Shown here in pieces: positions 13,751 to 36,432 of a stretch of 46,757 nt of DNA. The notes beneath the pieces are model-generated. The model ran no database searches, was not told the origin of the DNA, and worked only from the letters and a program-made list of their open reading frames with translations. Position numbers and translations under genes: made by a program. Numbering within the stretch: position 1 is the stretch's first letter; each line of letters starts with the position of its first letter. The stretch covers positions 1 through 46,757 of the forward strand of contig CAYLOC010000001.1 of NCBI GenBank assembly GCA_964385195.1, written 5' to 3'. Origin of the DNA: an uncultured Nocardioidaceae bacterium (lineage in GTDB: Bacteria; Actinomycetota; Actinomycetes; Propionibacteriales; Nocardioidaceae).

Positions 13751-13800
13751 GAGTTGTCAGAATCTGGGCACGCGATGGCGTGCCCAGATTCTGACAACTC
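13751..13800. repeat. 50-nt palindromic repeat, copy A (perfect 23-bp arms)
   Basis: GAGTTGTCAGAATCTGGGCACGC GATG GCGTGCCCAGATTCTGACAACTC. The arms are exact reverse complements. The outer 12 nt are shared with copies at 32246 and 36383. Confidence 0.9.
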
Positions 13801-13805
13801 GGCGA

Positions 13806-13811
13806 TAGGGT
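13806..13811 (+). promoter_or_regulatory. candidate -10 hexamer TAGGGT for leaderless galE
   Basis: TANNNT hexamer 7 nt upstream of ATG 13819, with no Shine-Dalgarno. The CGATAGGGTG context is identical to 10782-10791. Confidence 0.4.
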
Positions 13812-13818
13812 GCCACCT

Positions 13819-14835
13819 ATGCGTGTACTGGTCTCCGGCGGCGCCGGCTACATCGGGTCCCACACGGTCGTGCACCTGGTCGAGTCCGGGTACGACGTCT
13901 TGATCGTGGACAACTTCTGCAACTCCAAGCCCTCCGTCATCGGTCGGCTGGAGGCGATCACCGGCGCCCACCTCCCCGTGCACGGCTTCGACCTGCGGGA
14001 CATGGACAAGACCGAGCACCTGTTCACGCACGAGCCGATCGACGCGGTGATCCACTTTGCCGGCCTGAAGGCGGTCGGGGAGAGCGTGGAGAAGCCCCTG
14101 GAGTACTACGAGAACAACCTCGGCTCGACGTTCTCCCTGGTCCGGGCGATGCGCCGGCACGGGGTCTACAAGCTCGTGTTCTCCTCCTCGGCGACGGTCT
14201 ACGGCGCCGGGCAGGAGGCGGCGACGGAGGACCAGCCGACATCGGCCACCAACCCGTACGGCTGGACCAAGATGATGCAGGAGCAGATCCTGCGTGACGT
14301 CGCCGCGGCCGACACCACGATGCGGGTGGCGCTGCTGCGGTACTTCAACCCGGTCGGTGCCCACCCTTCGGGGCGGATCGGTGAGGACCCGGCGGGGATC
14401 CCGAACAACCTCATGCCGTTCATCGCCCAGGTCGCCGCGGGCCGCCGCGACCGGCTACGGGTGTTCGGCGACGACTACGACACGGTCGACGGCACCGGCG
14501 TCCGGGACTACATCCACGTCGAGGATCTCGCCGCCGGCCACGTCGCCGCGCTCGACAAGCTCGCCACCACCGACCAGCCGGTCAGCACGTGGAACCTCGG
14601 GACGGGACAGGGCACGAGCGTCTTGCAGCTGCTGCACGCGTTCGAACAGGCCATCGGGCGCGAACTCCCCTATGAGATCGTGGGCCGTCGCTCTGGTGAC
14701 ATCGCCACCTCGTACGCCGACCCCTCCCGCGCGCACGCCGAGCTCGGCTGGCGGGCTACGCGGTCGGTCGAGGACATGTGTCGTGATACGTGGCGGTGGC
14801 AGTCCCAGAACCCCCAGGGGTACCCCGACGCCTGA
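13819..14835 (+). CDS. galE: UDP-glucose 4-epimerase
   Basis: MRVLVSGGAGYIGSH Rossmann motif, VDNFCNS, and catalytic YxxxK (PYGWTKMM). Length ~338 aa. ATG 13819 preferred over GTG 13810. Confidence 0.92.
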   Translation: MRVLVSGGAGYIGSHTVVHLVESGYDVLIVDNFCNSKPSVIGRLEAITGAHLPVHGFDLRDMDKTEHLFTHEPIDAVIHFAGLKAVGESVEKPLEYYENNLGSTFSLVRAMRRHGVYKLVFSSSATVYGAGQEAATEDQPTSATNPYGWTKMMQEQILRDVAAADTTMRVALLRYFNPVGAHPSGRIGEDPAGIPNNLMPFIAQVAAGRRDRLRVFGDDYDTVDGTGVRDYIHVEDLAAGHVAALDKLATTDQPVSTWNLGTGQGTSVLQLLHAFEQAIGRELPYEIVGRRSGDIATSYADPSRAHAELGWRATRSVEDMCRDTWRWQSQNPQGYPDA

Positions 14836-14909
14836 GCAGGCGACACCACGCCGCGTCCGGCACTACCCTGGGCGAGGACCACACGCCCGCGACGAACCCG
14901 GGAGGCAGG

Positions 14910-15680
14910 GTGGGGTTCGACACCGAGGAGCACTACGCACGGCTGGCATCGGCGTACAACGGCAACTGGGCACACGATCCGGACTACGTCGCCTGGATGA
15001 GCCGCCGCATCATGGACGCGTTGGCGGTTACCTCCGGCGACCGGGTCGCCGACATCGGCGCCGGCACCGGCTTGTTCCTGGGGTTGCTCGGCGACACGGT
15101 GACGGAGCAGAACCCGGTGGTGTGTATCGACCCGTCCCGTCCGATGCTCGACCAGCTACCCGACGACCCCCGCCTGCGGCGGGTACAGGCCACGGCCGAG
15201 GACGTGGCGAGTGGGGCAGTGGCACTGCCGTATGACCGGCTCGACGCGGTGCTGATCAAGGAGGCCATCCACCACGTCTCCGACATCCCCGGCACGATCG
15301 CGGGCCTGGCGGCCCGGCTGGCGCCCGGCGGACGGTTCCTGATCGTGACCCTGCCGCCGGACCTGGACTACCCGCTGTTCCCGGAGGCGCTGGAGCGGTT
15401 CCGCCGGCACCAGCCCGACCCGGTCCAGATCGTGGCAGCAATGCGCGCGGCCGGTCTGACGGCGCGGCTGGGCTATGCCGGCTACCCGGTACGGGTCGCG
15501 CGGGAGCATTACGTGGAGTTGGTGCGTCACCGGTGGATGTCGGTGTTGTCGACGTTCAGCGACGCCGAACTCGAGGCAGGCGCCCGGCAGATCCAGCGTG
15601 CCCATCCGGCCGAACTGCGGTTCACCGACATGTTCGCGCTCGTACTCGGCGTACGGGACCGACGTGCCGCTGGGTCCTAG
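14910..15680 (+). CDS. class I SAM-dependent methyltransferase
   Basis: Motif I is VADIGAGTGLFLG. GTG 14910 is chosen because GGGAGGCAG lies directly upstream. The upstream part of ORF 14790-15680 overlaps the galE 3-prime end. Confidence 0.75.
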   Translation: MGFDTEEHYARLASAYNGNWAHDPDYVAWMSRRIMDALAVTSGDRVADIGAGTGLFLGLLGDTVTEQNPVVCIDPSRPMLDQLPDDPRLRRVQATAEDVASGAVALPYDRLDAVLIKEAIHHVSDIPGTIAGLAARLAPGGRFLIVTLPPDLDYPLFPEALERFRRHQPDPVQIVAAMRAAGLTARLGYAGYPVRVAREHYVELVRHRWMSVLSTFSDAELEAGARQIQRAHPAELRFTDMFALVLGVRDRRAAGS

Positions 15681-15889
15681 GAGTCGTCGGACTTGCGTGG
15701 CTGGGGTACGCCGGCCAGCAACTCGCGCACCTCCGACTCGCGGTAGCGCCGATGACCACCGAGTGTCCGGATCGAACTCAACTTGCCGGCCTTCGCCCAA
15801 CGGGTGACAGTCTTGGGGTCGACACGAAACATCGCGGCGACCTCGGCCGGAGTAAGCAACGACTCGGACTCAGTGTGCTTGGAGTTCAC
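15677..15889 (-). CDS. bldC: BldC-family MerR-like small DNA-binding developmental regulator
   Basis: The core LLTPAEVAAMFRVDPKTVTRWAKAGKLSSIRTLGGHRRYRESEVRELLAG is nearly the Streptomyces BldC sequence as I recall it. GTG 15889 (70 aa, GGAGGA 4 nt upstream) is preferred over the track start TTG 15916. Confidence 0.85.
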   Translation of the reverse strand: MNSKHTESESLLTPAEVAAMFRVDPKTVTRWAKAGKLSSIRTLGGHRRYRESEVRELLAGVPQPRKSDDS

Positions 15890-16229
15890 CTCGTCCTCCT
15901 CTGGTCGTGCATCCAAGCTGTCCGCTGGACGCCGGGAACGTGGGTGCCGATAGTCGACCGATCCTCACGTTCACCCAATCATGAAGCGGTCATCTCAGGT
16001 AAAGCGTAGTCGATCATCACAAAAACCACGTCCCCCTCAAATAGTTGCTTCCAGCACAAAGTTACAACAATGCCGTGGTCCTCGGCTACCCCCCACCCGC
16101 AGACAACTCAAGCATAGTGCAGCAACCCCCCGCAGTATCGGAAGCCACGGGAAATTTCCGAGCAGATCGCCCTCACCACCCGCGCGGGCCGAGCCGTGAC
16201 CGTCCCGCACGCTGGCCTATCGTGGGAGT

Positions 16230-17387
16230 GTGCCGCTTACCCGCGACACCGAGCCCCACCACTCCCGACACCCCGGGACGGACCCAGAAAGACGCGCAGC
16301 CGTGGCCGAGACCCCTGGATTCACCGTACTGAGCAACGAGACCGGACACGAGCAGGTCGTGTTCTGCCAGCACCCGCCGAGCGGTCTGCGCGCCATCATC
16401 GCGATCTACTCCACTGCGCTCGGTCCCGCGCTGGGCGGCACCCGGTTCTACCCGTATGAGTCCGAAGCCGACGCCGTCCGCGATGTGTTGAACCTCTCCC
16501 AGGGCATGGCCTACAAAGCCGCGTTGACCGGCCTCGACTTCGGCGGCGGCAAGGCCGTGATCATCGGCGACCCCCACACCGACAAGTCCGAAGCCCTCCT
16601 GCGGGCCTATGGCCGGTTCGTGCAGTCCCTCGGTGGCCGCTACCTCACCGCGTGCGACGTCGGCACCTACAGCGAGGACATGGACGTCATCGCCCGGGAG
16701 TGCGACTTCGTGACCGGGCGCACCATCGCCCACGGCGGCGCCGGCGACTCCAGCATCCTCACCGCCTTCGGGGTTTTCCAGGGCATGCGGGCCGCCGCCG
16801 AGGTCGCGTGGGGCACACCGAGCCTGCACGGCAGGCGCGTCGGCGTTGCCGGCGTCGGGAAGGTGGGCCACTACCTGGTGAACCACCTGATCGAAGACGG
16901 TGCCGAGGTCGTGGTGACCGACGTCTACCAGCCGGCGCTGGACCGGGTCCGCTCCGACCACCCTGACGTTGCCGTGGTCACCGACACCGACGAGCTCGTA
17001 CGCAGCGACATCGACGTGTATGCCCCCTGCGCCCTCGGCGACGCCTTGGACGACACCACGGTGAAGGTGCTCAAGGCCACCGTGGTCTGCGGAGCGGCGA
17101 ACAACCAGCTCGCCCATCCCGGCATCGAGGACGTCCTCCAAAGCCGGGGCATCCTCTACGCTCCGGACTACTGCGTCAACGCCGGCGGGCTGATCCAGGT
17201 CAGCGACGAACTCGAGGGGTTCTCGTTCGAGCGCGCCAAGGCCCGCGCCACGAAGATCTACGACACCACGAAGGACGTGTTCGCGGTCGCCACCGCGGAG
17301 GGGCTCACCACGGCCGCTGCAGCGGATCGGATCGCCGAGCGCCGGATGGCCATGGTCGGTGACCTCCGTCGGATCGCGGTCCCCTGA
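16230..17387 (+). CDS. vdh: Leu/Val dehydrogenase (Glu/Leu/Phe/Val dehydrogenase family)
   Basis: Active-site Lys motif [14 protein letters not shown] and NAD fold [12 protein letters not shown]. Synteny with bldC, DUF3073 and purM matches the Streptomyces vdh locus. Start is uncertain: GTG 16230 lies 6 nt after a TATCGT -10-like hexamer; GTG 16302 is an alternative. Confidence 0.85.
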
Positions 17388-17410
17388 CCCCGGAAGGCTG
17401 ACCCCGGGCC

Positions 17411-17605
17411 TTAGCGTCGCTGGGCGGACTCGTCGGCGTGGTCGTCCAGCTCGTCGGCATAGGGGTCGTCATACTCGTCGCCGGGTTCGTCTGCACGCTT
17501 CCCGTGCAGTTCCCGTTCCAGTTCGGCAAAGTCAGTGTTGAACTCGCGGTACTTCAACTCGCGAGCAACCTTCGTCTGCTTCGCCTTCGCACGGCCGCGC
17601 CCCAT
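17411..17605 (-). CDS. DUF3073-family small conserved actinobacterial protein
   Basis: ORF trimmed to ATG 17605. Basic N-terminus MGRGRAKAKQTKVARELKYREF and an acidic C-terminal tail. Conserved position next to purM. Confidence 0.8.
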   Translation of the reverse strand: MGRGRAKAKQTKVARELKYREFNTDFAELERELHGKRADEPGDEYDDPYADELDDHADESAQRR

Positions 17606-17732
17606 AGGGTCGACCCCCTCGCACATCGATGCCGGGTCCACCCATGTGGTGCCCGGTCTTCCTTCTTTGTCATCCGTGGCTCCCACGATACCTGGCCGCG
17701 CGCGCAGATACACACCCCCGGCCCGGCGTTTG

Positions 17733-18803
17733 TCAGCCGGGAGCGTAATCGCCGCTCAACCGGACCCGTCCCCCGGATTCGCCGGCGACAGCACCGCACA
17801 CCCAGGCGGTCAGTGCATGTGCCCGGAGCGTCGCCACGACCTCGTCGGCCGTCTCTGGTGCCGCCACGACCACCAGACCCACCCCCATGTTCAGGGTCTG
17901 CTCCAGGTCGGCCCGCGACACGGACCCCACTCGTCCGACCAGAGTAAACACCGGGAGCGGGGTCCAGGTACGGCGGTCCACGACCGCTTCCACGTCCGGC
18001 GGGAGCACTCGCTGCAGGTTCGCAGCGAGCCCGCCCCCGGTCACATGCGCCATTGCGCGGGTCCCGGCAAGCCGCGCAACGTCCAGGCAGGCGGGAGCGT
18101 AGATCGTGGTCGGCTCCAGCAGCTCCTCCCCCAGTGATCGCTGGAGCTCAGGAACCTCCCGGTCCAGCTCCCACCGGGCGTCCTCAAGCAGCACCCGGCG
18201 TACCAGGGAGTAGCCGTTGGCGTGCAGACCGGAGGAACCGACCGCGACCAGGACGTCTCCGGCGCGTACCCGGTCGGGTCCGAGCATGGCGTCGGCCTCC
18301 ACGACTCCGGTAGCAGCCCCGGCGACGTCGTACTCATCCGGCCCGAGTAGCCCAGGGTGCTCGGCGGTCTCACCACCCAGCAGGGCGCACCCGGCTTCCG
18401 CGCACGCGGCGGCGATGCCGCTGACGATCGCGGCCACCCGCTCGGGAACGACCCGCCCGCACGCGATGTAGTCGGTCAGGAACAACGGCTCGGCGCCACA
18501 CACGACCAGGTCGTCCACACACATGGCCACCAGGTCGAAGCCGAGCGTGTCGTGGCGGTCCATCGCCTGCGCGATCGCCACCTTCGTCCCGACCCCGTCG
18601 GTGCTGCTCGCCAGCAGCGGACGGCGGTACCGGTGGAGGGCGCTGGCGTCGAACAGCCCCGCGAAGCCGCCGATGCCTCCCACGACCTCCGGGCGCTGCG
18701 CCTTCTCCACCGACTGCCGCATCAGTGCGACGGCTCGGTCCCCTTCGGCGACCGAGACACCGGCCGCGGCGTAGGCACCGCCGGCGCGGTCGGATCCGCT
18801 CAC
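17733..18803 (-). CDS. purM: phosphoribosylformylglycinamidine cyclo-ligase (AIR synthetase)
   Basis: Motifs GGIGGFAGLFD and STDGVGTKVAIA. Start moved to GTG 18803, which overlaps the purF stop (GTGA). The 105 upstream codons of the track ORF overlap purF. Confidence 0.93.
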   Translation of the reverse strand: MSGSDRAGGAYAAAGVSVAEGDRAVALMRQSVEKAQRPEVVGGIGGFAGLFDASALHRYRRPLLASSTDGVGTKVAIAQAMDRHDTLGFDLVAMCVDDLVVCGAEPLFLTDYIACGRVVPERVAAIVSGIAAACAEAGCALLGGETAEHPGLLGPDEYDVAGAATGVVEADAMLGPDRVRAGDVLVAVGSSGLHANGYSLVRRVLLEDARWELDREVPELQRSLGEELLEPTTIYAPACLDVARLAGTRAMAHVTGGGLAANLQRVLPPDVEAVVDRRTWTPLPVFTLVGRVGSVSRADLEQTLNMGVGLVVVAAPETADEVVATLRAHALTAWVCGAVAGESGGRVRLSGDYAPG

Positions 18804-20344
18804 GGGCGGCGGAGGCTGTCGGCAGCGCCACCGCCGACGGCGGCGCTGGCCAGGCCGTCGGGGCGCGGGGCTGCGGCGGTGAGCTCCAGGGGGTACGTGT
18901 CCCGGTCCTGCCCGGCGGGCGTCCCCAGCGGGTACTCGCCGTCGAAACACGCCCGGCACAGCTGGTGCTTGGCCACCCCGGAGGACGCGATCAGCGCGTC
19001 GAGGGACACGTACCCCAGCGAGTCCGCGCCGATGGAACGGCCGATCTCCTCCGCGGTCATGGCGGCTCCGACCAGCTCGGCCTTGGTCGCGAAGTCGATC
19101 CCGTAGAAACACGGCCACTTCATCGGGGGGCTCGCGATGCGCACGTGGACCTCTCGTGCCCCGGCCTCCCGCAGCATCCGCACCTGGGCTCGCTGGGTGT
19201 TCCCCCGGACGATCGAGTCGTCGACGACGACCAGCCGCTGGCCCTCCACCACGTCACGCAGGGCGTTGAGCTTCAACCGGATACCGAGTTGCCGGATGGT
19301 GTCGCTGGGCTGGATGAACGTACGCCCCACGTAGGAGTTCTTGACGAACCCCTGGCCATAGGGGATCTTGCTCTCCTGGGCGTAGCCGATCGCCGCCGGC
19401 GTGCCGGACTCGGGCACCGGGATCACCAGGTCGGCGTCGACGGGGTGCTCTCGGGCCAGCGCCCGGCCGATCTCGGTACGGACGCTGTGTACCCGGTGGC
19501 CGCTGACCACGGTGTCCGGTCGGGCGAGGTAGACGAACTCGAACAGGCACCCCTTGGGTGTCGGCGGTGCGAACTGCCGGCTGCGGACGCCGTTCTCGTC
19601 GATGGCCAGGAGCTCGCCCGGGGCCACGTCGCGAACATACCCGGCCCCGACGATGTCCAGTGCCGCGGTCTCGGAGGCCACCACCCAGCCGCGTTCCAGC
19701 CGCCCCAGCACCAGCGGCCGCACCCCGTAGGGGTCGCGGGCGGCGTACAGCGTCCCCTCATCCATGAACGTGAAGCAGTACGCACCGGCGAGCATCGGGA
19801 ACAGGTCCGCGGCGGCATCTTCCAGCGACCGGTCGGCGTACGTCGAGAGCAGCGCGGTGACCAGCTCGGTGTCGCTGGAGTCGGTGTGGCCGTTCCCGAC
19901 CCGCACGCCCAGTCCGCGCCTCGCGCGCTCTTCGGAGAGGGCGGCCAGTTCGGGGGAGTTGGTCAGGTTGCCGTTGTGACACAGGGCGAGCGAGCCGGCC
20001 GGCGTCGGCCGGAACGTCGGCTGCGAGTTCGCCCACACGCTGGCCCCGGTAGTGGAGTAGCGGGTGTGCCCGATCGCGAGGTGACCTTTCAGAGTCTCCA
20101 GCGTTGGCTCGTCGAACACCTGCGAGACCAGGCCCATGTCCTTGTAGACCAGGATCTGCTCACCATTACTGGCCGCGATCCCGGCCGACTCCTGTCCCCG
20201 GTGTTGCAGGGCGTACAGGCCGAAGTAGGTCAGTTTGGCCACGTCCTCGCCCGGTGCCCACACGCCGAAAACGCCGCAGGCATCCTGCGGTCCGGGGTGC
20301 TGGGGGTCGATCTCGTGGGTGAGGCGTCCGTCTCCGCGAGGCAC
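18800..20344 (-). CDS. purF: amidophosphoribosyltransferase
   Basis: Propeptide followed by the nucleophile Cys in CGVFGVWAP. PRTase motif RLVVVDDSIVRGNT. C-terminal Cys residues consistent with the Fe-S type. Confidence 0.93.
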   Translation of the reverse strand: MPRGDGRLTHEIDPQHPGPQDACGVFGVWAPGEDVAKLTYFGLYALQHRGQESAGIAASNGEQILVYKDMGLVSQVFDEPTLETLKGHLAIGHTRYSTTGASVWANSQPTFRPTPAGSLALCHNGNLTNSPELAALSEERARRGLGVRVGNGHTDSSDTELVTALLSTYADRSLEDAAADLFPMLAGAYCFTFMDEGTLYAARDPYGVRPLVLGRLERGWVVASETAALDIVGAGYVRDVAPGELLAIDENGVRSRQFAPPTPKGCLFEFVYLARPDTVVSGHRVHSVRTEIGRALAREHPVDADLVIPVPESGTPAAIGYAQESKIPYGQGFVKNSYVGRTFIQPSDTIRQLGIRLKLNALRDVVEGQRLVVVDDSIVRGNTQRAQVRMLREAGAREVHVRIASPPMKWPCFYGIDFATKAELVGAAMTAEEIGRSIGADSLGYVSLDALIASSGVAKHQLCRACFDGEYPLGTPAGQDRDTYPLELTAAAPRPDGLASAAVGGGAADSLRRP

Positions 20345-20353
20345 GGCCTCAGT

Positions 20354-21694: not shown

Positions 21695-21712
21695 GACGGG
21701 GATGCTATCGAC

Positions 21713-22087: not shown

Positions 22088-22137
22088 GGACTCAGCATAT
22101 TCCGCAGCGTGCAGCGGTCATGCTGTTCCCCCGGGTG

Positions 22138-27300: not shown

Positions 27301-27352
27301 GCCGCAACATGTGAGCGGCTTTGGCGATAAGAGTGGATAACGATTCAGCTGG

Positions 27353-28021: not shown

Positions 28022-28296
28022 GCGTCCGCGTCCGCAGACGCCGCCTGCGCCGACGCCTCGACCCGCACCGTGAAGTCCTCGATCACCGGGTTGGACAACA
28101 GCGTCTCCGCGGCCCGCCGCACGTCCGCGAGCCGCTCCTCGGTCGCCGGGCCGTCCAGCTCCAGCTCGAACCGCTTCCCCTGACGCACCGCGCGGATCCC
28201 GGAGAACCCGAGCCGGGGCAATGCACCCTGGACCGCCTTCCCCTGCGGGTCGAGGATCTCCGGCTTCAACATGACGTCGACGACGACGCGTGCCAC
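28018..28296 (-). CDS. purS: phosphoribosylformylglycinamidine synthase subunit PurS
   Basis: [22 protein letters not shown] is the typical PurS N-terminus. GTG 28296 is preceded by AGAGGAG. ATGA overlap with purQ. Confidence 0.9.
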
Positions 28297-28522
28297 GGGC
28301 GCTCCTCTGCTGATGCGGTCAGGCGGGCGGGTGCAGCCACAGTCTACGGAAGGGCCCCGAGAAAAGTGCGCCCGGAAGGCAACCAAATCCGTCTGGCAGA
28401 CGTCTGTATCAGTGAAACACCGGGGACCTCCTAGGTTTCCGGGGAGACCAGAGCGTGGAAAACGCTCCAGGGGTCCGCACGGTGACTCGGGGGAGCCGCC
28501 CGCGGGCCAAACGGGGGATTGG

Positions 28523-28560
28523 AAGGGCCGGGTAACGGCGAATAGCCCGGCCCTTTCTCC
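28523..28560 (+). terminator. terminator-like hairpin in the purS / LLM divergent region
   Basis: AAGGGCCGGG - 13 nt - CCCGGCCCTT followed by TCTCC (a weak U tract on the plus strand; none on the minus strand). Confidence 0.3.
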
Positions 28561-28605
28561 CTGTCCCCTTGCTCCCTTTGCACTTTCTGCCTGGCCCCTT
28601 GCTCC
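28553..28605. repeat. two 23-nt direct repeats with 30-nt period
   Basis: CTTTCTCCCTGTCCCCTTGCTCC (28553-28575) and CTTTCTGCCTGGCCCCTTGCTCC (28583-28605), 21/23 identical. Pyrimidine-rich on the plus strand. Confidence 0.8.
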
Positions 28606-28653
28606 TGGCCACGATCAGGTGCCGGTCTGCCGGTGGCTAGGCTTGAGGCTGTC

Positions 28654-29673
28654 ATGGCCTCCCCCGCGTCACCGCTGCCACTGTCCGTCCTCGACTTCGT
28701 CGGCATCGAGTACGGCGAGCCAGCCAGCGCGTCGATCGCCGGCGCCGTCGACGTAGCCCGGGCCGTCGAGGAGGCCGGGTACCGCCGGTACTGGGTGTCG
28801 GAGCATCACAACATGCGGAGCCTGGCGTGTACCGCCCCGGAGATCCTGATCAGCCACATCGCCGCGCACACCCAACGGATCCGGGTCGGCGCGGCCGGGA
28901 TCATGCTGCCCAACCACTCGCCGTACAAGGTGGCGGAGATGTTCCGGACGCTGCTCGCGGCGTACCCGGGCCGGATCGACCTCGGGCTGGGTCGCGCCCC
29001 CGGCACGGACCCGCTGACCGCGCACGTGCTCCGCCGTGGCATCGACGTCGACCCGGGGGCGGAGTTCCCCGCGCAGGTGGCCGAGTTGCTGGCGTTCCTC
29101 GACGCGGGGCAGGACTTCCCGCCCGACCACCCCTACCGTCGGCTGCTCGCGGCACCCGAGGTGGACGAGCAGCCCGAGATCTTCATGCTCGGCTCCAGCC
29201 AGTACGGACCGAAGTTCGCCGCGGTCAACGGGATGACGGCCGTCTTCGCCCACCACATGAGCCCGGACATCGCGTTCGACCTGCTGCGGCAGTACCGGAC
29301 GGAGTTCCAGCCCCGGCGGGAGGGCGACACGCCGTACTCGGCGATGTCGGTCCTCGCGTTTGCCAGCGACGACGAGACCGACGTGATGGAGTTCGAGGCG
29401 GGTTGGACCCTGACGATGCACAACCTACGGCGCAACATCCGGGAACCGCTGCGTCCGGAGGAGGTCACCGAGTTCGCCCGCTCCGAGGAGTTCCGCAGTC
29501 AGCGCCGGGGCCCGGACTCCCGGATGGTGACCGGACCCGCGCCGGAGGTGGTGCAGCGGCTCCGTGCCATGCGTGAGCAGGCCGAGGCCGATGAGCTGGT
29601 GATCGTGACCCCGAGCATCGGCCGCAACCGCCGGATCACCAGTTACCGCCAGATCGCCGACGCCTGGCGCTGA
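28654..29673 (+). CDS. LLM-class flavin-dependent oxidoreductase (luciferase-like monooxygenase family)
   Basis: LSVLDFVG..., YRRYWVSEHHNM, LPNHSPYKVAE and IDLGLGRAPG are typical of the YhbW-like LLM subgroup. ATG 28654 has GAGG 6 nt upstream. Confidence 0.85.
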   Translation: MASPASPLPLSVLDFVGIEYGEPASASIAGAVDVARAVEEAGYRRYWVSEHHNMRSLACTAPEILISHIAAHTQRIRVGAAGIMLPNHSPYKVAEMFRTLLAAYPGRIDLGLGRAPGTDPLTAHVLRRGIDVDPGAEFPAQVAELLAFLDAGQDFPPDHPYRRLLAAPEVDEQPEIFMLGSSQYGPKFAAVNGMTAVFAHHMSPDIAFDLLRQYRTEFQPRREGDTPYSAMSVLAFASDDETDVMEFEAGWTLTMHNLRRNIREPLRPEEVTEFARSEEFRSQRRGPDSRMVTGPAPEVVQRLRAMREQAEADELVIVTPSIGRNRRITSYRQIADAWR

Positions 29674-29689
29674 CCCCTCCCCCAACCCC

Positions 29690-29760
29690 GACCGAACACC
29701 TCTCCCCCACCGAATCCGGCCGTTCTGACCCCGAAAACGGTGGGTCGGGGGTGTTCGGTC
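29690..29760. terminator. imperfect long hairpin between convergent genes (possible bidirectional terminator)
   Basis: GACCGAACACC...CCCACCG (29690-29712) pairs with CGGTGGG...GGTGTTCGGTC (29738-29760). No clear U tract. Overlaps the stop of the acyl-CoA synthetase. Confidence 0.35.
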
Positions 29761-31312
29761 AGGCGAGCTCGCGTTTGAGGATCTTTCCGGTGGCGGTCAT
29801 CGGGAGCTCGTCGCGGAACTCGACGGTGCGGGGATACTTGTACGCCGCCATCTGCTCCTTGCACCAGGCGACCAGGTCGGCCTCGGTGAGGTCGTCGTGG
29901 TCCTTCTCCCGGATCACGAACGCCTTGATCTCCTCGCCGTGCGCCTCATCCGGTACGCCGACCACGGCCACCAGTGACACCGCTGGGTGGGTGAGCATGA
30001 CCTCCTCCACCTCCCGCGGATACACGTTGAACCCGCCGCGGAGGATCATGTCCTTGGCGCGGTCGACGATGAAGTAGTACCCGTCCTCGTCACGGGTGGC
30101 AAGGTCGCCGGAGCGGAACCAGCCGTCCTGCATCACCGCCGCGGTCTCGTCCGGGCGCTTGTAGTAGCCCTTCATGATGTTGTGGCCGCGCATCGCGATC
30201 TCGCCGACCGCCCCGACCTCGGTGACCTCGTTCCAGTCCTCGTCGACCAGTGTGGCCTGCACGCCCCAGATCGGCGTCCCGATCGAGCCGGGCCGCGGGT
30301 CGCCCTCGCGCGGGGTGAACGTGGCCACCGGGGAGGTCTCCGACAGCCCGTACCCCTCCTGGATGTTGATGTGGAACCGGGACTTGATCTCCTTCAGGAT
30401 CTCCACCGGCAGCGGGGACCCACCGGAGGCAGCGAACCGGAGGTTGGCCGCGATCGTGTCCACGTCCACGTCGTCGGTCAGGGCACCGAGCAGACCCCAC
30501 CACATCGTGGGTACGCCGGCGAACGACGTCACGCCCTCGGCGACCATCAGCCGCAGCGCCTGCGCGGGGTCGAAGCGGGGCAGCATCACCAGGGTCCCGG
30601 CACCGAAGAACCCGCAGTTCATGACCACGGTCTGCCCGAAGGAGTGGAACAGCGGCAGGGCGAGCAGGTACACGTCGTACCCGGACTCCCGGGGCGCCGC
30701 GAGCTTGGCGGACTCGATGGCGTTGAACACCATGTTGGAATGGGTCAGCTCCGCGCCCTTCGGCTGTCCGGTCGTGCCGCTGGTGTAGAGGATGACCGCG
30801 GTGTCGCTTTCGCTGGTGGCCCGCGACTCGAACGTCGCCGGCCGGTCGGCGACGGCCGCGCCCAGCGTCTCCGCTCCCTCGATCGGCGACGCCGCGGCCG
30901 GGTCGGCGGTGATCAAGAAGAAGTGCTCGCAGGCCTCGGCCTCGCCGTACGCCTGCCACCCTGCCTGGCCCATCGGGAGCTCGGCGGTGCCTTCGAAGCA
31001 GAAGTACGCCTTGGCATCGGAGTCACGCAGGTGGTAGGCCACCTCGCGTGCCTTGAACAAGACGTTGAGCGGCACGACGACCGCTCCGGCCTTGAGGATG
31101 CCGTAGTAGACCATCGGGAAGAACGGCAGGTTCGGGCATGACAGCGCGACCTTGTCACCGGGCTCGATCCCGCGGTCGGTCAGCAGGTGCGCCACCTTGC
31201 TGGCCATCGCCTCGATCTGGGCGTAGGTGAAGCGGGAGTCGCCGAGCACGACCGCGTCGCGGTCAGGGAAGTTGCGGGCGCTGTCTTCCAGCATCACGGC
31301 GAGGTTCAACAT
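29759..31312 (-). CDS. long-chain acyl-CoA synthetase / AMP-dependent ligase
   Basis: AMP-binding motifs ILYTSGTTGQPKG and QEGYGLSETSP. Start trimmed to ATG 31312 (MLNLAVMLEDSARNFPDRDAVV) with GAAGGAGG upstream. The track ORF extension up to 31963 overlaps purC. Confidence 0.9.
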   Translation of the reverse strand: MLNLAVMLEDSARNFPDRDAVVLGDSRFTYAQIEAMASKVAHLLTDRGIEPGDKVALSCPNLPFFPMVYYGILKAGAVVVPLNVLFKAREVAYHLRDSDAKAYFCFEGTAELPMGQAGWQAYGEAEACEHFFLITADPAAASPIEGAETLGAAVADRPATFESRATSESDTAVILYTSGTTGQPKGAELTHSNMVFNAIESAKLAAPRESGYDVYLLALPLFHSFGQTVVMNCGFFGAGTLVMLPRFDPAQALRLMVAEGVTSFAGVPTMWWGLLGALTDDVDVDTIAANLRFAASGGSPLPVEILKEIKSRFHINIQEGYGLSETSPVATFTPREGDPRPGSIGTPIWGVQATLVDEDWNEVTEVGAVGEIAMRGHNIMKGYYKRPDETAAVMQDGWFRSGDLATRDEDGYYFIVDRAKDMILRGGFNVYPREVEEVMLTHPAVSLVAVVGVPDEAHGEEIKAFVIREKDHDDLTEADLVAWCKEQMAAYKYPRTVEFRDELPMTATGKILKRELA

Positions 31313-31332
31313 CGGCGGCAGCCTCCTTCGTC

Positions 31333-31376
31333 GGGTTGTCAGGCCGTCGCCGGGTGAGGGGCCACAGTCTGACACC
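31333..31376. repeat. possible decayed copy (D) of the palindromic repeat
   Basis: GGGTTGTCAGG...GGCCACAGTCTGACACC keeps TTGTCAG at the left and CCAC..TCTGACA.C at the right. Length is 44 nt instead of 50 and the interior is unrelated. Confidence 0.25.
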
Positions 31377-31383
31377 ACGGAGC

Positions 31384-32238
31384 CTACGTCGAGAAGCGGT
31401 GCCCCGTCAGCCGCTCGTACGCCTCGACGTACCGGGAGCGCGTCTTCTCGACCACGTCCGCGGGCAGTTCCGGCGGCGGCGTGTCGGAGTGCCGGTCCCA
31501 GCCGGACGCCGGCGAGGTGAGCCAGTCGCGCACGAACTGCTTGTCGTACGACGGCTGCGGGCGGCCCGGCTCCCAGGCGTCGGCGGGCCAGAACCGCGAG
31601 GAGTCCGGGGTGAGCACCTCGTCGGCGAGTACGACGGTCCCGTCGGCCCGCCGACCGAACTCCAGTTTCGTGTCGGCGAGGATGATCCCGCGGTCCCGGG
31701 CGAGCGTCTCGGCGCGGGCGTAGACACGCAGGGTCAGGTCGCGGAGGGTGGCTGCGGTGTCGGCACCGACCGCGGCCGCTACGTCGTCGAAGGACACGTT
31801 CTGGTCGTGGTCGCCCTGCGCGGCCTTGGTGGCCGGGGTGAACACCGGCTCCGGGAGCCGGGACCCGTCCAGGAGTCCGTCCGGCAGCGGCACTCCGCAG
31901 ACGGAGCCGGTGGCCTGGTAGTCGGCCAGCCCGGACCCGGTCAGGTAGCCACGGGCGACGCACTCCACCGGGTACATCTCCAGCCGCTCACAGACCACCG
32001 CTCTCCCGGCGAACTCCCCGGGAACGTCCGCGGAGACCACGTGGTTCGGCACCAGATCGGCGAGCTCCTCGAACCACCACAGCGACATCCGGGTGAGCAC
32101 CGTGCCCTTGTCCGGGATCGGGGTCGGCAGGACGTAGTCGTAGGCGGAGATGCGGTCCGAGGCGACCATCAGCAGCCGCCCCTCGGCGTACTCGTAGAGA
32201 TCGCGCACCTTGCCGGAGTAGACGTGACGCACACCCAC
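31384..32238 (-). CDS. purC: phosphoribosylaminoimidazole-succinocarboxamide synthase
   Basis: Motifs [11 protein letters not shown] and [17 protein letters not shown] start 32238. Confidence 0.93.
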
Positions 32239-32245
32239 ACCCTAC

Positions 32246-32295
32246 GAGTTGTCAGACGTTGAGCACGTCATGACGTGTCCCACTTCTGACAACTC
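32246..32295. repeat. 50-nt palindromic repeat, copy B
   Basis: GAGTTGTCAGACGTTGAGCACGTCATGACGTGTCCCACTTCTGACAACTC. Lies 7 nt upstream of the purC start and contains the last 14 codons and the stop of the MMPL gene. Confidence 0.9.
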
Positions 32296-34357
32296 CGATG
32301 CCGGTGAGGGCGGTGACCGCGGGGACGAGGACGCCGCGGACCACGGTGGCGTCGAGCAGGATCCCGATCCCCAACGTGGTGGCCATGACCTTGACGTCGA
32401 CGGCCGGAACCGCCGACAACGACACGAACGCCAGGAACAAGATCACCGCCGCGCCGGTCACCAGCCGCCCGACCCGCCCCAGGCCTTCGACCACAGCCGT
32501 ATGCAACGACCCGGACTCGTCATAGGTCTCGCGCATGCGGGAGAGGAGGAACACCTCGTAGTCCATCGAGAGGCCGAACAAGAACGCGAACGTGATCAGC
32601 GGCACCCAGAACGTGATCGAGCCCAGCGCGTGGTACCCGAACAGCAACTGCGAGCCGAACCCGTCCTGCCAGATCAGGACCGCGGCCCCGTACGCGGCGG
32701 CGATCGAGACGACGTTGAGCAGCACCGCCTGCGCGGCCAACCGGAACGAACGAAACGCCCGAGCCAGCAGCACGAACGCCACAGCGGCCACCACGACCAG
32801 CAGCCAGATGATGTTGCTGTACAACGCGTCGACGGCGTCGACGAGCTGCGCGCCGCTGCCACCGACCCTGGCCCGGGGGAAGCGCTCGGCGACCACGTCC
32901 CGGACCGTGGCCAGCGTGTCCTGCCCGGCGTCGGTGCTGGTCTCGTGGCGCGGGAGGACATCGACCAGCGCCGCCGGGGCTCCAGCGGCGGTCCCCGTTG
33001 CGGGCGTCGCCGCGAACACGCCGTCGACCCCGTCCAGCGTCGTCGCGACGCGCTGCGGATCCTCGCCACCGGGGACGAGCACCTCGATGGGCGTCAACAC
33101 GCCGCTCGGAACGCCGGTCGCGGACAGGTGCTGTACGGCGACCCGCGCCGGGCCGTCTCCGGGCAGCGCGTCCGAGGGCGCGGTACCCAGCCGGATCGTG
33201 GTCGCGGCCACCACCAGCGGTGCCAGCACCGCCAACGCCGCACCCGCCGCGACCCACCGGTGCCGTACCACCAGGCCGGCCCATCGTGTCCACACCCTGC
33301 CGGTACGGCGTGCACCGCGGCCGCGGGCGCGGCGGCGCGGCCAGTCCACGCGCGGGCCGACTTTCGACAGCAGCGCCGGCAGCAAGGTCAGCGTCACCAG
33401 GACGCTGACCGCGGGGATCAGCGCGCCGGCGTATCCGACGCTGCGCAGGAACGGCACCGGTACCAGCACCAGCACCACCAACCCCAGGGCAACGGTCACG
33501 CCGCTGAACACCACCGACCGGCCCGCCGTGGACATGGCGACGCGGACCGCATCATCGTTGTCCCGGCCACGGCCACGTTCCTCCCGCCACCGCGTCACCA
33601 GCAGCAGCGAGTAGTCGATCGCGACCCCGAGGCCGATCAAGGCGATGAGGAACTGCACCAGGAAGCTCACATCGGTGAACGTGGTCAACCCGAGCACCGC
33701 AAGGAACGTGGACAGGATCGACACCCCGGCCACCAGCATCGGCAGCAGCGCCAGCAGCGAGCCGAACACGAGCGCCAACACCACCAACGCTCCCCCCGCG
33801 GCAACCAGGGTCTCCACGAGTACGCCGGTGCTACCGCCGGACTCCGCCGCCTGGGCGCTGAGCTGGCTTACACCGGTGACGCGCACCGTCGTACCGGCCG
33901 GCAGGGCCTGGTCCAGTCGCTGTTGCACCAGATCGGCCAACGACGCGTTCTGGTCGCCGGGTGGCGGGTAGACCAGCGCGAAGACGGTCTGCCCGTGGTC
34001 GGCGATGAACGCATCGTCACCGGTGGTAGAGGAGGAGACCACGCGCAAGCGCGGATCCTCGTCCAGACGGGCGAAGGCCTTGACGAGTGACGATCGGACC
34101 GCGGGGTCGCTCGCCGTGTGGTCTCCCGACAGCGTGACCACGGGCACGAGCGGGGTCGTGGGGCCGCCGGTGCCGTAGTGCCGCAGGATGGCGGTGTTGG
34201 CCTCGTAGCCGGGCTGGCCCGGGAAGCTGAACTGCGTCGACAGCCGATCGGTGACGGAGGAGGAGGCCGCTACGCCGGCGACCAGCACCACCGACCAGAG
34301 CACCACCACGAGCAGCCGATGACCGAGTACGAAACGAGTGAGACGCTGCATGCCCAT
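32252..34357 (-). CDS. MMPL-family (RND superfamily) membrane transporter
   Basis: 701 aa in two homologous halves. Each half has a hydrophobic cluster followed by TRWREERGRG / LLSRMRETYDE type motifs. The last 14 codons (GVVRSGTRHDVLNV) are encoded by repeat copy B. Confidence 0.9.
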   Translation of the reverse strand: MGMQRLTRFVLGHRLLVVVLWSVVLVAGVAASSSVTDRLSTQFSFPGQPGYEANTAILRHYGTGGPTTPLVPVVTLSGDHTASDPAVRSSLVKAFARLDEDPRLRVVSSSTTGDDAFIADHGQTVFALVYPPPGDQNASLADLVQQRLDQALPAGTTVRVTGVSQLSAQAAESGGSTGVLVETLVAAGGALVVLALVFGSLLALLPMLVAGVSILSTFLAVLGLTTFTDVSFLVQFLIALIGLGVAIDYSLLLVTRWREERGRGRDNDDAVRVAMSTAGRSVVFSGVTVALGLVVLVLVPVPFLRSVGYAGALIPAVSVLVTLTLLPALLSKVGPRVDWPRRRARGRGARRTGRVWTRWAGLVVRHRWVAAGAALAVLAPLVVAATTIRLGTAPSDALPGDGPARVAVQHLSATGVPSGVLTPIEVLVPGGEDPQRVATTLDGVDGVFAATPATGTAAGAPAALVDVLPRHETSTDAGQDTLATVRDVVAERFPRARVGGSGAQLVDAVDALYSNIIWLLVVVAAVAFVLLARAFRSFRLAAQAVLLNVVSIAAAYGAAVLIWQDGFGSQLLFGYHALGSITFWVPLITFAFLFGLSMDYEVFLLSRMRETYDESGSLHTAVVEGLGRVGRLVTGAAVILFLAFVSLSAVPAVDVKVMATTLGIGILLDATVVRGVLVPAVTALTGIGVVRSGTRHDVLNV

Positions 34358-34483
34358 GACGCTAGAAAGTCAGCGGCCGCTGCGGAATGTGGTTACCTGG
34401 CCGGTTCGCGGTAGGGAAAACCCGATGTCGATACGCCGGTAAGCACCCTGGTACGTCGCTGCCCCGCCCAGCATGATGAGGTC

Positions 34484-35767
34484 ATGAACGCCTTTCGTCT
34501 GTTGGCTCGTCTCTTGGCGCCGCTGGTGCATCGGCGTACCTGGATGATCACCGGCTCTCTGCTGCTCGCCATGGTCACCGGCACGTTCTGGTTCATCGTG
34601 CTGAGTGTCGGGGTCACGTTCGGTGCGGGCACGTTGCTGATCTGGGTCGGCGTGGTCGTCCTGGCGGGGCTGCCGCTGGTGTGGCGGTACGGCGCCCGGA
34701 TCGAGCGGCGGGTGGTGTGGGCCCTCCTCGGGGTGCCGATCGACCCGCCGTACCGGCCGCTGCCCCGTGGCTCGGTGTTCACCCGCGCCCGGGTGGTCGC
34801 GGCGGACCCGGCGACGTGGAAGGACCTGGCCTACCTGCTGCTGCTGTTCCCGCTCGGAACCGTGTGGGCCGCGATCACCCTCGCTTTCTGGGGGTGGGGA
34901 CTGACCCTGCTCACCACACCGGCGTACTACTACGCGTTACCGGAGGGAGGCATCGGGTGGCTGGGGCTGGACCGGATCGCGCCGCCGGTGGACAGCCTGC
35001 CGCGGGCGGTGCTCGCGTGTGCTGTCGGGGCGCTGCTCACGATCGCAGCGCCGTACGTCGTCCGCGGGCTCGGCCACGTATACGGCCAGGTGGCGCGGGG
35101 ACTGCTGGGTCCGACCCCCGGTCAGCGAGTGGCCAACGAGGCCGCGCGGTTGCGGCACAGCCGAGACCGGGCGGTGGAGGCGGCCGCCGCCGAGCGGCGC
35201 CGGGTGGAGCGGGACTTGCACGACGGAGCGCAGCAACGCCTGATCTCGGTGGCGATGGACGTCGGGCTGGCGCGGCAGAAGCTCGCCGCGGACCCGCAAG
35301 CGGCCGACGACCTCCTCCGCTCCGCCCACTCCGACGCGAAGCAGGCGATCGCCGAGCTCCGGGACCTCGCCCGCGGACTGCGTCCGGCCATGCTCGCCGA
35401 ACACGGGCTGGACGCCGCACTGTCCGCGCTGGCCGGGCGGTCACCGGTCCCGGTGGAGGTAGACGTCGACCTCGACCGCCGTCCGCCCGCCACGATCGAG
35501 GAGGCGGCGTACTTTCTGGTGGCCGAGGCGCTGACCAACGTCGCCAAACACGCCGCGGCCAGCCGCGCATGGGTCCAGATCTCCTGTGCGAGCGGGAAGG
35601 TGCGGATCGAGGTCGGCGACGACGGCGCTGGCGGCGCATCGAGCGTTCCCGGCGGCGGGCTGGCCGGCCTGGCCGACCGGTTCGCCGGGCTGGACGGGAC
35701 CATGGACGTCATGAGCCCACCCGGAGGACCGACCGTGATCCGGGCGGAGTTGCCATGCGGGTCGTGA
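34484..35767 (+). CDS. sensor histidine kinase (HisKA_3 / NarL-partner type) with multi-span membrane sensor domain
   Basis: H box LHDGAQQRLISVAMD, N box AEALTNVAKHA and G box VGDDGAGG. The N-terminal ~190 aa are strongly hydrophobic. Confidence 0.9.
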   Translation: MNAFRLLARLLAPLVHRRTWMITGSLLLAMVTGTFWFIVLSVGVTFGAGTLLIWVGVVVLAGLPLVWRYGARIERRVVWALLGVPIDPPYRPLPRGSVFTRARVVAADPATWKDLAYLLLLFPLGTVWAAITLAFWGWGLTLLTTPAYYYALPEGGIGWLGLDRIAPPVDSLPRAVLACAVGALLTIAAPYVVRGLGHVYGQVARGLLGPTPGQRVANEAARLRHSRDRAVEAAAAERRRVERDLHDGAQQRLISVAMDVGLARQKLAADPQAADDLLRSAHSDAKQAIAELRDLARGLRPAMLAEHGLDAALSALAGRSPVPVEVDVDLDRRPPATIEEAAYFLVAEALTNVAKHAAASRAWVQISCASGKVRIEVGDDGAGGASSVPGGGLAGLADRFAGLDGTMDVMSPPGGPTVIRAELPCGS

Positions 35768-36426
35768 TCTGTGAGGACTCGGTCCTCCTCCGTGAGGGGT
35801 TGACGCGGCTGCTTGCCGAGGGCGGCCACGAGGTGGTCGCGGCCGTGGGCGACGCCGATGCCCTGATGGCGTCGGTCGAGGCTGATGCCCCGGAGCTGGC
35901 GCTGGTCGACGTACGCCTGCCGCCGACCCAGACGACCGAGGGTCTCCAAGCCGCACTTCGGATCCGCGCCGAACACACCGACGTCGCCGTCCTCGTCCTG
36001 TCGCAGTACGTCGAGGAGCGCTACGCCGTCGACCTGGTCGGGGGTGGGGACCGAGGCGTGGGGTATCTGCTGAAGGAGCGGGTGGCCGACGTCACCGAGT
36101 TCCTCGACGCCGTGGAGCGGGTCGGCCACGGCGGCACCGCCATCGACCCGGAGGTGGTAGCGCAGCTGCTTGGCCGGCGGCGGCGGGGCAGCCCGGTCGA
36201 CGCCCTCACACCCCGGGAACGGGAGGTGCTGGGCCTGATGGCCGAGGGACGGTCCAACGGGGGGATCGCGGAGGAGCTGGTGCTGACGCTGGGGGCGGTG
36301 GAGAAGCACGTCAGCAACGTCTTCACCAAGCTGCAGCTGGACGACGTCGCGACCGACAACCGCCGGGTCCGCGCCGTCCTCCGAGTTGTCAGAAGTGGAG
36401 CACGCTATGGCGGGTCCCACTTCTGA
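35755..36426 (+). CDS. NarL/LuxR-family response regulator
   Basis: Found in the C-terminal part of track ORF 34681-36426. ATG 35755 overlaps the kinase stop by 13 nt. Receiver domain MRVVICEDSVLLREGL...LALVDVRLPP and LuxR HTH LTPREREVLGLMAEGRSNGGIAEELVLTLGAVEKHVSNVFTKL. The last 14 codons (RVVRSGARYGGSHF) are encoded by repeat copy C. Confidence 0.9.
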   Translation: MRVVICEDSVLLREGLTRLLAEGGHEVVAAVGDADALMASVEADAPELALVDVRLPPTQTTEGLQAALRIRAEHTDVAVLVLSQYVEERYAVDLVGGGDRGVGYLLKERVADVTEFLDAVERVGHGGTAIDPEVVAQLLGRRRRGSPVDALTPREREVLGLMAEGRSNGGIAEELVLTLGAVEKHVSNVFTKLQLDDVATDNRRVRAVLRVVRSGARYGGSHF

Positions 36427-36432
36427 CAACTC
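36383..36432. repeat. 50-nt palindromic repeat, copy C
   Basis: GAGTTGTCAGAAGTGGAGCACGCTATGGCGGGTCCCACTTCTGACAACTC. 44/50 identical to copy B in direct orientation. Ends 3 nt before the purB stop codon. Confidence 0.9.

Follow-up and report, generated by a model that had tools for sequence, protein, structure and literature searches.

A family of interspersed palindromes in Actinomycetota and its probable genetic link to a resident AbiEi-DUF559 gene

To our knowledge, the RAYT (REP-associated tyrosine transposase), an HUH transposase, provides the only well-understood route by which palindromes of the repetitive extragenic palindromic (REP) kind come to populate bacterial genomes. In the REP/REPIN-RAYT systems, or 'REPtrons', of Proteobacteria, short interspersed extragenic palindromes, built as paired imperfect hairpins of 20-25 nt, are present in tens to hundreds of copies, form sequence populations of their own in each genome, gather in tandem doublets or clusters, often abut or supply stop codons, and bracket a single chromosomal, vertically inherited gene. 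The terminal tetranucleotide GTAG (or CGTC) is the REP/RAYT cleavage motif, and CGTC-tagged REPs and other palindromic families have no known enzyme (PMC3733652). Here we analyse palindromes found in a 46.7-kb stretch of DNA (46,757 nt; hereafter the window) from an uncultured Nocardioidaceae bacterium (contig CAYLOC010000001.1). They belong to a large family of interspersed DNA repeats widespread in Actinomycetota, and it is highly probable that this REP-like family is genetically tied to a gene for an AbiEi-DUF559 fusion protein. The closest functional analogue appears to be the REPIN-RAYT or 'REPtron' arrangement. What is new, on our best reading, is that a repeat population with a resident cognate gene, in itself a known arrangement, is built on an enzyme different from RAYT.

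AbiEi proteins are sequence-specific autorepressors that act on inverted repeats (PMC7319586). The AbiEi of S. agalactiae places two monomers on two 23-bp inverted repeats 3 bp apart in its own promoter, and Rv2827c binds pairs of 23-bp repeats 13 bp apart, likewise in its own promoter (PMC7319586). DUF559 is placed in the Vsr clade of PD-(D/E)XK nucleases, which includes a group I intron homing endonuclease (PMC3424549).

A scan of one genome per prokaryotic species with the pattern GAGTTGTCAGA-N22-36-TCTGACAACTC returned at least 116 stretches, and the family statistics given here rest on the matches listed in that scan, taken as 8-kb loci. Their hosts include Propionicimonas, Microlunatus, Friedmanniella, Propioniciclava, Nocardioidaceae, Isoptericola, Luteimicrobium, Cellulomonas and Oerskovia, as well as Krasilnikoviella, Leifsonia, Dermatophilaceae, Frankiaceae, Geodermatophilaceae and Gaiellaceae. 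The repeat unit is 54 nt long and reads CC-GAGTTGTCAGA-N28-TCTGACAACTC-GG. The spacer is exactly 28 nt in 124 of the 125 copies with exact arms, whose arm invariance follows by construction from the scan pattern; when up to five arm mismatches are allowed, 158 of 162 copies retain the 28-nt spacing. The commonest arm variant is a covarying exchange of G-C for C-G at arm position 3/48. The element is composed of two inverted half-sites of ~25 bp (23-25 bp) around a 4-nt centre, and these central nucleotides (consensus YATR) are not palindromic beyond their composition (0.51 vs 0.45; 0.66 vs 0.57). The palindrome is flanked by ~12 nt rich in C at its 5' end and ~12 nt rich in G at its 3' end (46% G in the 3' flank). 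An extension of the stem through these flanks was considered and rejected: duplexes formed by a copy's own flanks have a mean of -14.6 kcal/mol and those formed with the flanks of other copies -13.4 kcal/mol, and because the former are barely better, the flanks are compositional rather than specifically paired. The original prediction did not recognise the sequence of the window copies from any described family, and none was found here: a gathering-score scan of the whole window against Rfam gave 0 matches, and the arm sequence occurs in the searched literature only in unrelated primers. Searches of the (incompletely covered) literature for DUF559 with palindromic repeats, AbiEi with DUF559, and REP with Actinobacteria yielded no description, and the association of the repeat family with the AbiEi-DUF559 gene is apparently undescribed so far.

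The link to the gene was found on both sides, from the palindromes and from the protein. In the loci L008, L016 and L046, in which two copies lie ~1.05 kb apart, the same open reading frame (ORF) of ~320 aa occupies the interval. The gene was detected by tblastn in 7 of the 116 palindrome-selected loci listed, and all 7 have palindromes on both sides when degenerate arms are allowed. Three more homologues on long contigs, picked by protein similarity only, are bracketed as well (3/3), for a total of 10 out of 10 genome loci. In a metagenome scan performed by protein alignment alone (80 loci), 52 of 58 testable loci have the upstream palindrome, which as a rule begins ~128 nt ahead of the match; the downstream (3'-end) palindrome is found in 69 of 74, and both in 43 of 53. 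The upstream palindrome lies about 80-130 nt before the gene start, the downstream one overlaps the 3' end of the gene, and the median distance between the two is 1,059 nt. Since the ORF runs into the downstream copy, the arm, read as GAG-TTG-TCA, encodes a conserved C-terminal 'ELS'. Strict mutual inversion of the two gene-flanking copies was rejected as a rule, the orientation being a trend only (C/C vs G/G 10:4 upstream and 2:13 downstream).

The bracketed chromosomal gene may, as RAYT genes are, be single-copy and vertically inherited. Its position between icd and a glycosyltransferase gene is conserved in five Propionibacteriales loci (L008, L016, L029, L117 and L119), and that between yjeF and acpS in two Nocardioides species; a UDP-glucose dehydrogenase gene and a Sir2 gene are also found among the neighbours. 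A search of 72,556 plasmids for the protein gave no match, and the phage and plasmid collections hold a single one (MT837139.1, 3685-4500). The latter entry is an unannotated 7.6-kb 'Bacteriophage sp.' contig from human faeces, with 33% identity over 87% of the query.

As judged from profile and fold comparisons, the ~320-aa protein appears to join a complete AbiEi module, made up of a winged helix and the AbiEi C-domain, to a DUF559/Vsr-like PD-(D/E)XK nuclease domain. The AbiEi models of PADLOC match the N-terminal ~190 residues (residues ~10-190, E 1.6e-19). In 20 of 35 family members the last ~100 residues give a DUF559 match (best E 1.1e-5), and two members match the MTES_1575 model. Single sequences remain below the Pfam and NCBIfam thresholds, Y1_Tnp does not match the protein, and sequence searches of the PDB with the protein returned nothing. 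An AlphaFold (AF2) model with a pLDDT (predicted local distance difference test) value of 85.7 has the AbiEi antitoxin 6y8q (E 2.6e-6) and Rv2827c (1zel) as its top Foldseek matches in the PDB; the C-terminal fold matches, to EndoMS and the DUF559-like protein 3hrl, are weak. Residues E255-x-D257-G-x-x-H261, D270 and E274-R275 are invariant in 35 sequences, and the E-x-D-G-x-x-H motif resembles FVDGCFWH, the active-site strand of Vsr. The likeness to Vsr/DUF559 nucleases is restricted to this C-terminal region: Vsr is a stand-alone T/G mismatch nicking enzyme, whereas here the domain is predicted to be tethered to an AbiEi module and encoded by a gene that is most probably tied to a repeat family. 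The protein belongs to a superfamily of 4,124 representative clusters (E <= 1e-3), and existing annotations read 'hypothetical', 'DUF559 domain-containing', 'AbiEi family antitoxin domain-containing' or 'very-short-patch-repair endonuclease'.

The palindromes are likely the cognate DNA sites of the AbiEi-DUF559 protein, and we consider it probable that the protein binds them. Their geometry, 23-25 + 4 + 23-25 bp, matches that of the operators of AbiEi/Rv2827c type IV toxin-antitoxin systems (two ~23-25-bp inverted repeats with a 2-6-bp centre here, 23 + 3 + 23 bp there; PMC7319586), one copy lies just upstream of the gene, and the AbiEi module is recognized by both profile and fold. The two arrangements differ in that no adjacent AbiEii (DUF1814) toxin gene is present at the gene loci examined, a fused nuclease domain being found instead, and in that the gene has a second site over its 3' end and further copies are scattered through the genome. 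In the half-site profile obtained from the protein-selected loci, the outer core CC-GA-S-TTGTCAG is strongly conserved and the middle AAyCTCA moderately so, followed by four free but covarying positions and the conserved centre GC-TA. Among homologues at 45-50% identity, arm positions 10-12 are variable (GTCAGCG, GTCAGGC, GTCACCG). In a 33%-identical subfamily, known from Nocardioides scoriae and N. dokdonensis and set in a different synteny (between yjeF and acpS), both positions are again occupied by palindromes, here of ~52 nt, with different arms (CGAGTCGTG... and GGTCGTG...) and an interior that differs between the two species and is alike in the two copies of one genome. Arm sequence thus appears to follow the divergence of the protein subfamilies, which lends indirect support to binding.

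A second motif was observed between the upstream palindrome and the gene start. TT(A/G)TCCACAG is conserved in this interval and equals the DnaA-box consensus TTATCCACA/TTGTCCACA; it often occurs as an inverted pair, TGTGGAT-N10-12-ATCCACA (L120 2420-2500; L117 about 3935-3960; L124, L125, L127, L118; L202 2947-2960; L203 2950-2960). It is found within 130 nt upstream of the gene in 27 of 38 loci, compared with 0.06 per kb elsewhere, has no association with the dispersed palindromes (5/144) and is not enriched in the window. The distant Nocardioides subfamily has it as CTGTGGA(T/A). The motif also resembles the palindrome arm with a 3-nt insertion (TTGTC-CAC-AGA), and could reflect DnaA-coupled control of the gene or a second type of site for the same protein.

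The interior of the palindrome covaries strongly. Pairs 12-23/28-39 are Watson-Crick in 73-89% of the copies, against 28-61% expected from column composition. In a set of 112 copies, with at most five per genome, 88.5% of the cells are paired (73.6% in shuffles) and 445 cells have changed on both sides (169 +/- 13 in shuffles), with a covariation score of 0.364 that falls to 0.116 on shuffling and to 0.06-0.10 when the partner is slid by 1-3 columns. Each of the twelve interior pairs has undergone 16-56 double changes, across more than 50 genomes, and the interior mismatches include many transversion types, C.C and G.G among them.

The original prediction took preserved pairing as the signature of selection for a hairpin or cruciform, or for a site bound by a dimer. 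The covariation is overwhelming, but the descent of subfamilies or template switching can also give paired changes, and these may therefore be mechanical, produced by intrastrand template switching in quasi-palindromes and by different master copies, rather than by selection for structure. Quasi-palindrome correction is established mutational biology, and the C.C and G.G mismatches fit decay followed by correction and not stepwise G.U intermediates. Moreover, subfamilies within a genome have asymmetric mismatches in common (copies B and C of the window; the copies of Propionicimonas AS-MESO), so that many between-copy differences reflect descent. The number of double changes per pair and the level at which pairing is held across genomes argue against this origin, as does the expectation that, without constraint or continuous regeneration, the interior would decay as it has in the relic copy D of the window. 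We hold a mechanical origin of the paired changes to be rather unlikely; it is compatible with the explanation favoured below. Between the two structural options, a dimer site is the better supported, by the AbiEi operator geometry and the linked gene.

At least 26 copies in 20 loci were found in Microlunatus speluncae, where a single genome holds several distinct interior subfamilies, each with several near-identical members. Because these interiors are very different, one protein cannot read them. The interior symmetry points to a hairpin or cruciform intermediate, to replicative descent from palindromic masters, or to quasi-palindrome template switching.

Copies also occur in clusters that recall the REP clusters known as bacterial interspersed mosaic elements (BIMEs) (L018 6731/6792 and 7862/7923; L010 6050/6111; L025 6805/6866; L066 723/784; L080 729/789; L077 3895/3949; L088 313/417/521; L005 5719/6024/6253/6559). 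In Micrococcales (Isoptericola, Oerskovia, Luteimicrobium) they often form back-to-back doublets with a period of ~61 nt, the counterpart of the tandem doublets of REPs. Arrays in M. speluncae have a 104-nt period, and a ~535-nt higher-order tandem unit contains two copies. Some metagenome contigs start or end inside a palindrome (L160 1-53, L185 1-55, L123 1-41), and many contigs with the AbiEi-DUF559 gene are only 1-3 kb long, suggesting that the repeat breaks short-read assemblies.

With respect to genes, the nearest stop codon is usually located 1-26 nt before the element or inside it (125 copies), and the 62 resolved contexts comprise 40 tandem, 13 convergent and 9 divergent arrangements. 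Such a distribution, with its depletion of divergent contexts, together with the very stable hairpins of the window copies (-15 to -35 kcal/mol, z -4 to -13), would be expected of RNA or transcription elements, either bidirectional terminators or 3'-end hairpins that stabilise mRNA, with the gene link being incidental or a matter of origin only. REP termini, too, are known to abut or supply stop codons (PMC3733652). The GC-rich hairpin of an intrinsic terminator is present in the palindromes, but the T/U tract that would come after the stem is missing, G abounds in the 3' flank, and a terminator scan around the copies returned 0 terminator-like sites. On the transcribed strand of 45 copies between co-directional genes, 20 G.U and 24 A.C mismatches were counted, and since G.U is not in excess, selection for an RNA hairpin on one strand is disfavoured. 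Furthermore, a terminator needs no specific 11-13-nt sequence conserved across orders, copy A of the window lies between divergent gene starts, and Rfam holds no match. As the primary function of the family an RNA-level role is improbable; it may describe a side effect of the elements, and such an effect on mRNA 3' ends is possible.

The copies evolve in concert, being more alike within a genome than between orthologous sites. The nearest relative by interior sequence resides in the same genome for 92 of 128 copies (7.2 expected). Among ten orthologous pairs with alignable flanks (70-90% identity), seven have 10-14 differences over the 28 interior positions and three have 3-4; between each copy and its nearest paralogue there are 1-6 differences, with one exception. 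Copies are also gained and lost. A copy that lies between two convergent genes (L008:2523) is missing from the syntenic L016, where the gap is 12 nt, and the purC/AMP-ligase junction that holds copy D in the window is empty (16 nt) in L201, a Nocardioidaceae metagenome-assembled genome (MAG) that has a member of the family at another site. At five offsets from the boundary, direct repeats are no commoner than in shuffled flank pairs, except for the palindrome's own GC, and so give no sign of target-site duplication. The combination of position, missing RNA signal, concerted evolution, gain and loss, and lack of target-site duplication identifies a REP-like DNA element that replicates or is homogenised, and does not fit a conserved regulatory site or RNA motif.

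Three loci of one MAG (L024, L083 and L032; CAVUZU / MFD04212.bin.2.25) have flanks 75-93% identical, with the palindrome in one and missing from another; they are either paralogous segments or co-binned strains. L100, which has a right flank similar to that of copy C, was rejected as its orthologue, as it contains neither purB nor the response-regulator gene; the similarity is a coincidence.

These properties also bear on the proposal that the palindromes are operators of a regulon, at which an AbiEi-family or other dimeric regulator would hinder the transcription of adjoining genes (purC and the epimerase operon, for example), by repression or as a roadblock, with no mobility involved. AbiEi autorepressors do bind inverted repeats (PMC7319586), the upstream copy is located at a fixed distance from the AbiEi-DUF559 gene, and copies A and B of the window lie next to gene starts. 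Most copies, however, are found at 3' gene ends and not at promoters, the neighbouring genes have no common function, orthologous junctions lack the site, and the near-identical subfamilies within a genome, the presence/absence differences and the relics look like replicative spread. This proposal is quite improbable. Three known types of site were considered individually. A PurR-type or other purine operator was rejected, as the positions relative to purC and purB are inconsistent and the genes beside family members are everywhere unrelated. Integron attC sites were rejected too, since their core-site consensus, RYYYAAC/GTTRRRY, is not matched by the arms. The PafBC/RecA-NDp promoter motif, TGTCRGTG-N8-TANNNT, has a core similar to TTGTCAG, but the palindrome is a symmetric element in which the distance to the central TATAG is 11 and not 8, and it lacks the final T.

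Classification as a REP/MITE-like element, as originally proposed, was accurate with respect to a large interspersed palindrome family, but the copies are neither classical miniature inverted-repeat transposable elements (MITEs), given the lack of target-site duplication, nor REPs of the RAYT type, given the lack of GTAG, CGTC or an HUH enzyme. They resemble MITEs in being small and non-coding, with inverted termini, presence/absence polymorphism and insertion into gene ends, and differ in that the gene unit is bracketed by whole palindromes and not by single arms. From REP/REPIN-RAYT they are set apart by the consensus CCGAGTTGTCAGA...TCTGACAACTCGG, which lacks the terminal tag, by a single long 54-nt palindrome with a conserved outer core, by a bracketed gene that appears to encode AbiEi plus a DUF559/Vsr-like PD-(D/E)XK domain and not an HUH/Y1 (IS200/IS605-type) transposase, and by the host phylum, Actinomycetota. 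A conventional MITE or RAYT-type REP might still be moved by an insertion sequence (IS) or an HUH-Y1 transposase elsewhere in the genome, the AbiEi-DUF559 gene being a frequent neighbour; the copies are short, interspersed and palindromic, vary in number between genomes, and overlap ORF ends as insertions do. The co-occurring transposase that this would call for was looked for and did not appear: no transposase-like gene recurs in the 116 eight-kb loci listed, no parent IS with ends equal to the arms was found in them, and the AbiEi-DUF559 gene was encountered instead, bracketed in essentially every case, the protein-selected samples included. Distant relatives of the protein carry different palindromes. 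Movement by such a transposase is therefore highly improbable.

On balance, we favour the explanation that the palindromes are proliferated REP-like cognate sites of the AbiEi-DUF559 protein, which act at the DNA level. Two protein monomers would occupy the two conserved outer cores in the manner of AbiEi, and the upstream copy would serve to autoregulate the gene. In many lineages, including that of the window, the site is multiplied to many intergenic positions, mostly just past stop codons. The nuclease domain may nick or cut at or near bound, and possibly extruded, palindromes, and repair or copying from other copies would then spread and homogenise them, resulting in a REPIN-RAYT-like relationship built on a non-HUH enzyme. 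That the protein also mobilises or homogenises the copies is a tentative extension, which we would put at somewhat below even chances. Equally speculative is the general proposal that AbiEi-DUF559 fusions, a large actinobacterial family, are the engines of a second, independently evolved system of repeats and resident enzyme, analogous to REPIN-RAYT, in which each subfamily would read its own ~52-54-bp palindrome through the AbiEi module, the nuclease would nick or cut it (possibly as a cruciform), and repair-templated copying would spread and homogenise the repeats over the whole chromosome.

Several observations weigh against this explanation. Beyond the genetic linkage, we infer binding, cleavage and mobilisation alike. 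The interior symmetry is not explained by dimer binding alone, and the DUF559 match is weak on single sequences (E 0.1). Most metagenome loci have only the two gene-flanking copies within +/-2.5 kb, and in many lineages the palindromes may have stayed a simple pair of operators without ever multiplying. Clean insertion boundaries are obtained neither from the L008/L016 comparison of empty and filled sites, the genomes being diverged, nor from that of L083 with L024, which belong to the same MAG. Finally, tblastn did not detect the AbiEi-DUF559 gene in the window, and the best reading of its three copies and relic is as solo members, with the gene located elsewhere in the genome or not visible in this stretch.

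The hedged interpretation of the original prediction is thereby supported and sharpened. Genomic statistics that are both strong and independent tie a repeat family, in a phylum different from that of the REPtrons, to a protein architecture unrelated to RAYT. Should this link prove functional, a very large orphan family ('DUF559'/'AbiEi antitoxin domain') would for the first time be given a concrete substrate and role, a second, convergent case would be added in which repeats and a chromosomal gene resident with them coexist over long times, and the defined 54-bp site and 320-aa protein would be directly testable in vitro. It would also draw attention to a repeat that appears to disrupt metagenome assemblies and that changes how host proteins end, as seen at the C-termini of the MMPL transporter and the response regulator of the window.

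A covariance model trained on 112 copies from other genomes was used to scan the whole window with filters off. It recovered three strong copies, A, B and C (about 53-75 bits, E 1e-12 to 1e-18), and one decayed copy, D, and no further sites (Table 1). The three full copies had been placed exactly in the original prediction, 11-nt arms included, and the decayed candidate proved to be real but weak. The 11-nt arm GAGTTGTCAGA has 6 exact occurrences in the window, one per arm, against 0.47 expected, and none of 100 shuffles reaches 6. The paired changes reported between copies are confirmed by direct reading: between A and C, positions 13/38, 14/37 and 15/36 change from T-A, C-G and T-A to G-C, T-A and G-C, and between B and C, 23/28 changes from T-A to C-G. 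Copies B and C have identical asymmetric mismatches, which places them in one subfamily by descent, and some of their differences from A thus represent subfamily identity and not compensation in place. Copy D has lost its interior pairing, its spacer is shorter by 4 nt, and a single mismatch is found in the 9-nt core (GTTGTCAGA/TCTGACAAC) of either arm.

Table 1. Palindrome copies of the window, the stop codons they supply and the adjoining genes. Hairpin energies and z values refer to single-stranded DNA.
Feature	Position	Strand	Description	Covariance-model score	Hairpin
Copy A	core 13751-13800; palindrome to 13746-13805	no strand	28-nt arms, 4-nt centre, 96% complementary	74.5 bits, E 2.5e-18	-35.5 kcal/mol, z -13.3
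Copy B	32246-32295	no strand	84% complementary, most degenerate of A/B/C	55.1 bits	-15.1 kcal/mol, z -4.2
Copy C	core 36383-36432; with CC/GG extension 36381-36434	no strand	88% complementary	67.5 bits	-25.7 kcal/mol, z -8.7
Copy D, decayed relic	31328-31383	no strand	arms GTTGTCAGG / TCTGACACC	16.6 bits, E 0.018	no stable hairpin; no better than shuffles (z 0.03)
TGA stop of MMPL gene	32252-32254	-	in far arm of copy B, TCTGACAACTC on minus strand; protein tail ...VVRSGTRHDVLNV		
TGA stop of response-regulator gene	36424-36426	+	in far arm of copy C (TCTGACAACTC); protein tail ...VVRSGARYGGSHF		
DAO-type (FAD) oxidoreductase gene	12575-13735	-			
NAD-epimerase gene	13810-14835	+			
purC ORF	31384-32238	-	stop at 31384		
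MMPL transporter gene	32252-34357	-			
LuxR-type response-regulator gene	about 35767-36426	+			
purB	36436-37914	-			

The window has a G+C content of 69%, and the region around the copies is devoted to purine biosynthesis (purM, purF, purL, purQ, purC, purB and purA, plus fba), as determined from third-position GC and Pfam matches. Copy A is located between the divergent starts of the oxidoreductase and NAD-epimerase genes. Copy B ends 8 nt ahead of the purC ORF and contains the end of the MMPL transporter gene (~14 codons and the stop); copy C does the same for the response-regulator gene, at its convergent junction with purB. The two proteins consequently both end in an element-encoded ...VVRSG.R... 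sequence. Copy D follows the purC stop and precedes the AMP-ligase gene with its ribosome-binding site and start. As a refinement of the statement that all copies sit at gene junctions, B and C are not strictly intergenic. As had been noted, the window has no transposase gene; the gene and Pfam survey detected no integrase or nuclease gene either, and a tRNA scan found no tRNA gene. No orthologue of the window at the DNA level is present among the loci examined, and the closest purC is only ~80% identical.

Two further inverted repeats were observed in the window. A separate strong hairpin at 43419-43482, with 26-nt arms, 92% complementarity and a 12-nt loop, lies directly past the purA stop (43485) and looks like a gene-end hairpin outside the repeat family. 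An imperfect 33-nt inverted repeat (29687-29763, 76% complementary) is situated between the convergent genes for a luciferase-like monooxygenase (ending at 29673) and the AMP-ligase (stop at 29759). The segment 32252-36426, which contains the MMPL gene and a histidine kinase/response regulator pair, lies between purC and purB; in a relative (L200, 1399-3906; purC 80% identical) these two genes are adjacent, with a 156-nt gap. In the window, this block has a palindrome at both ends, copies B and C.

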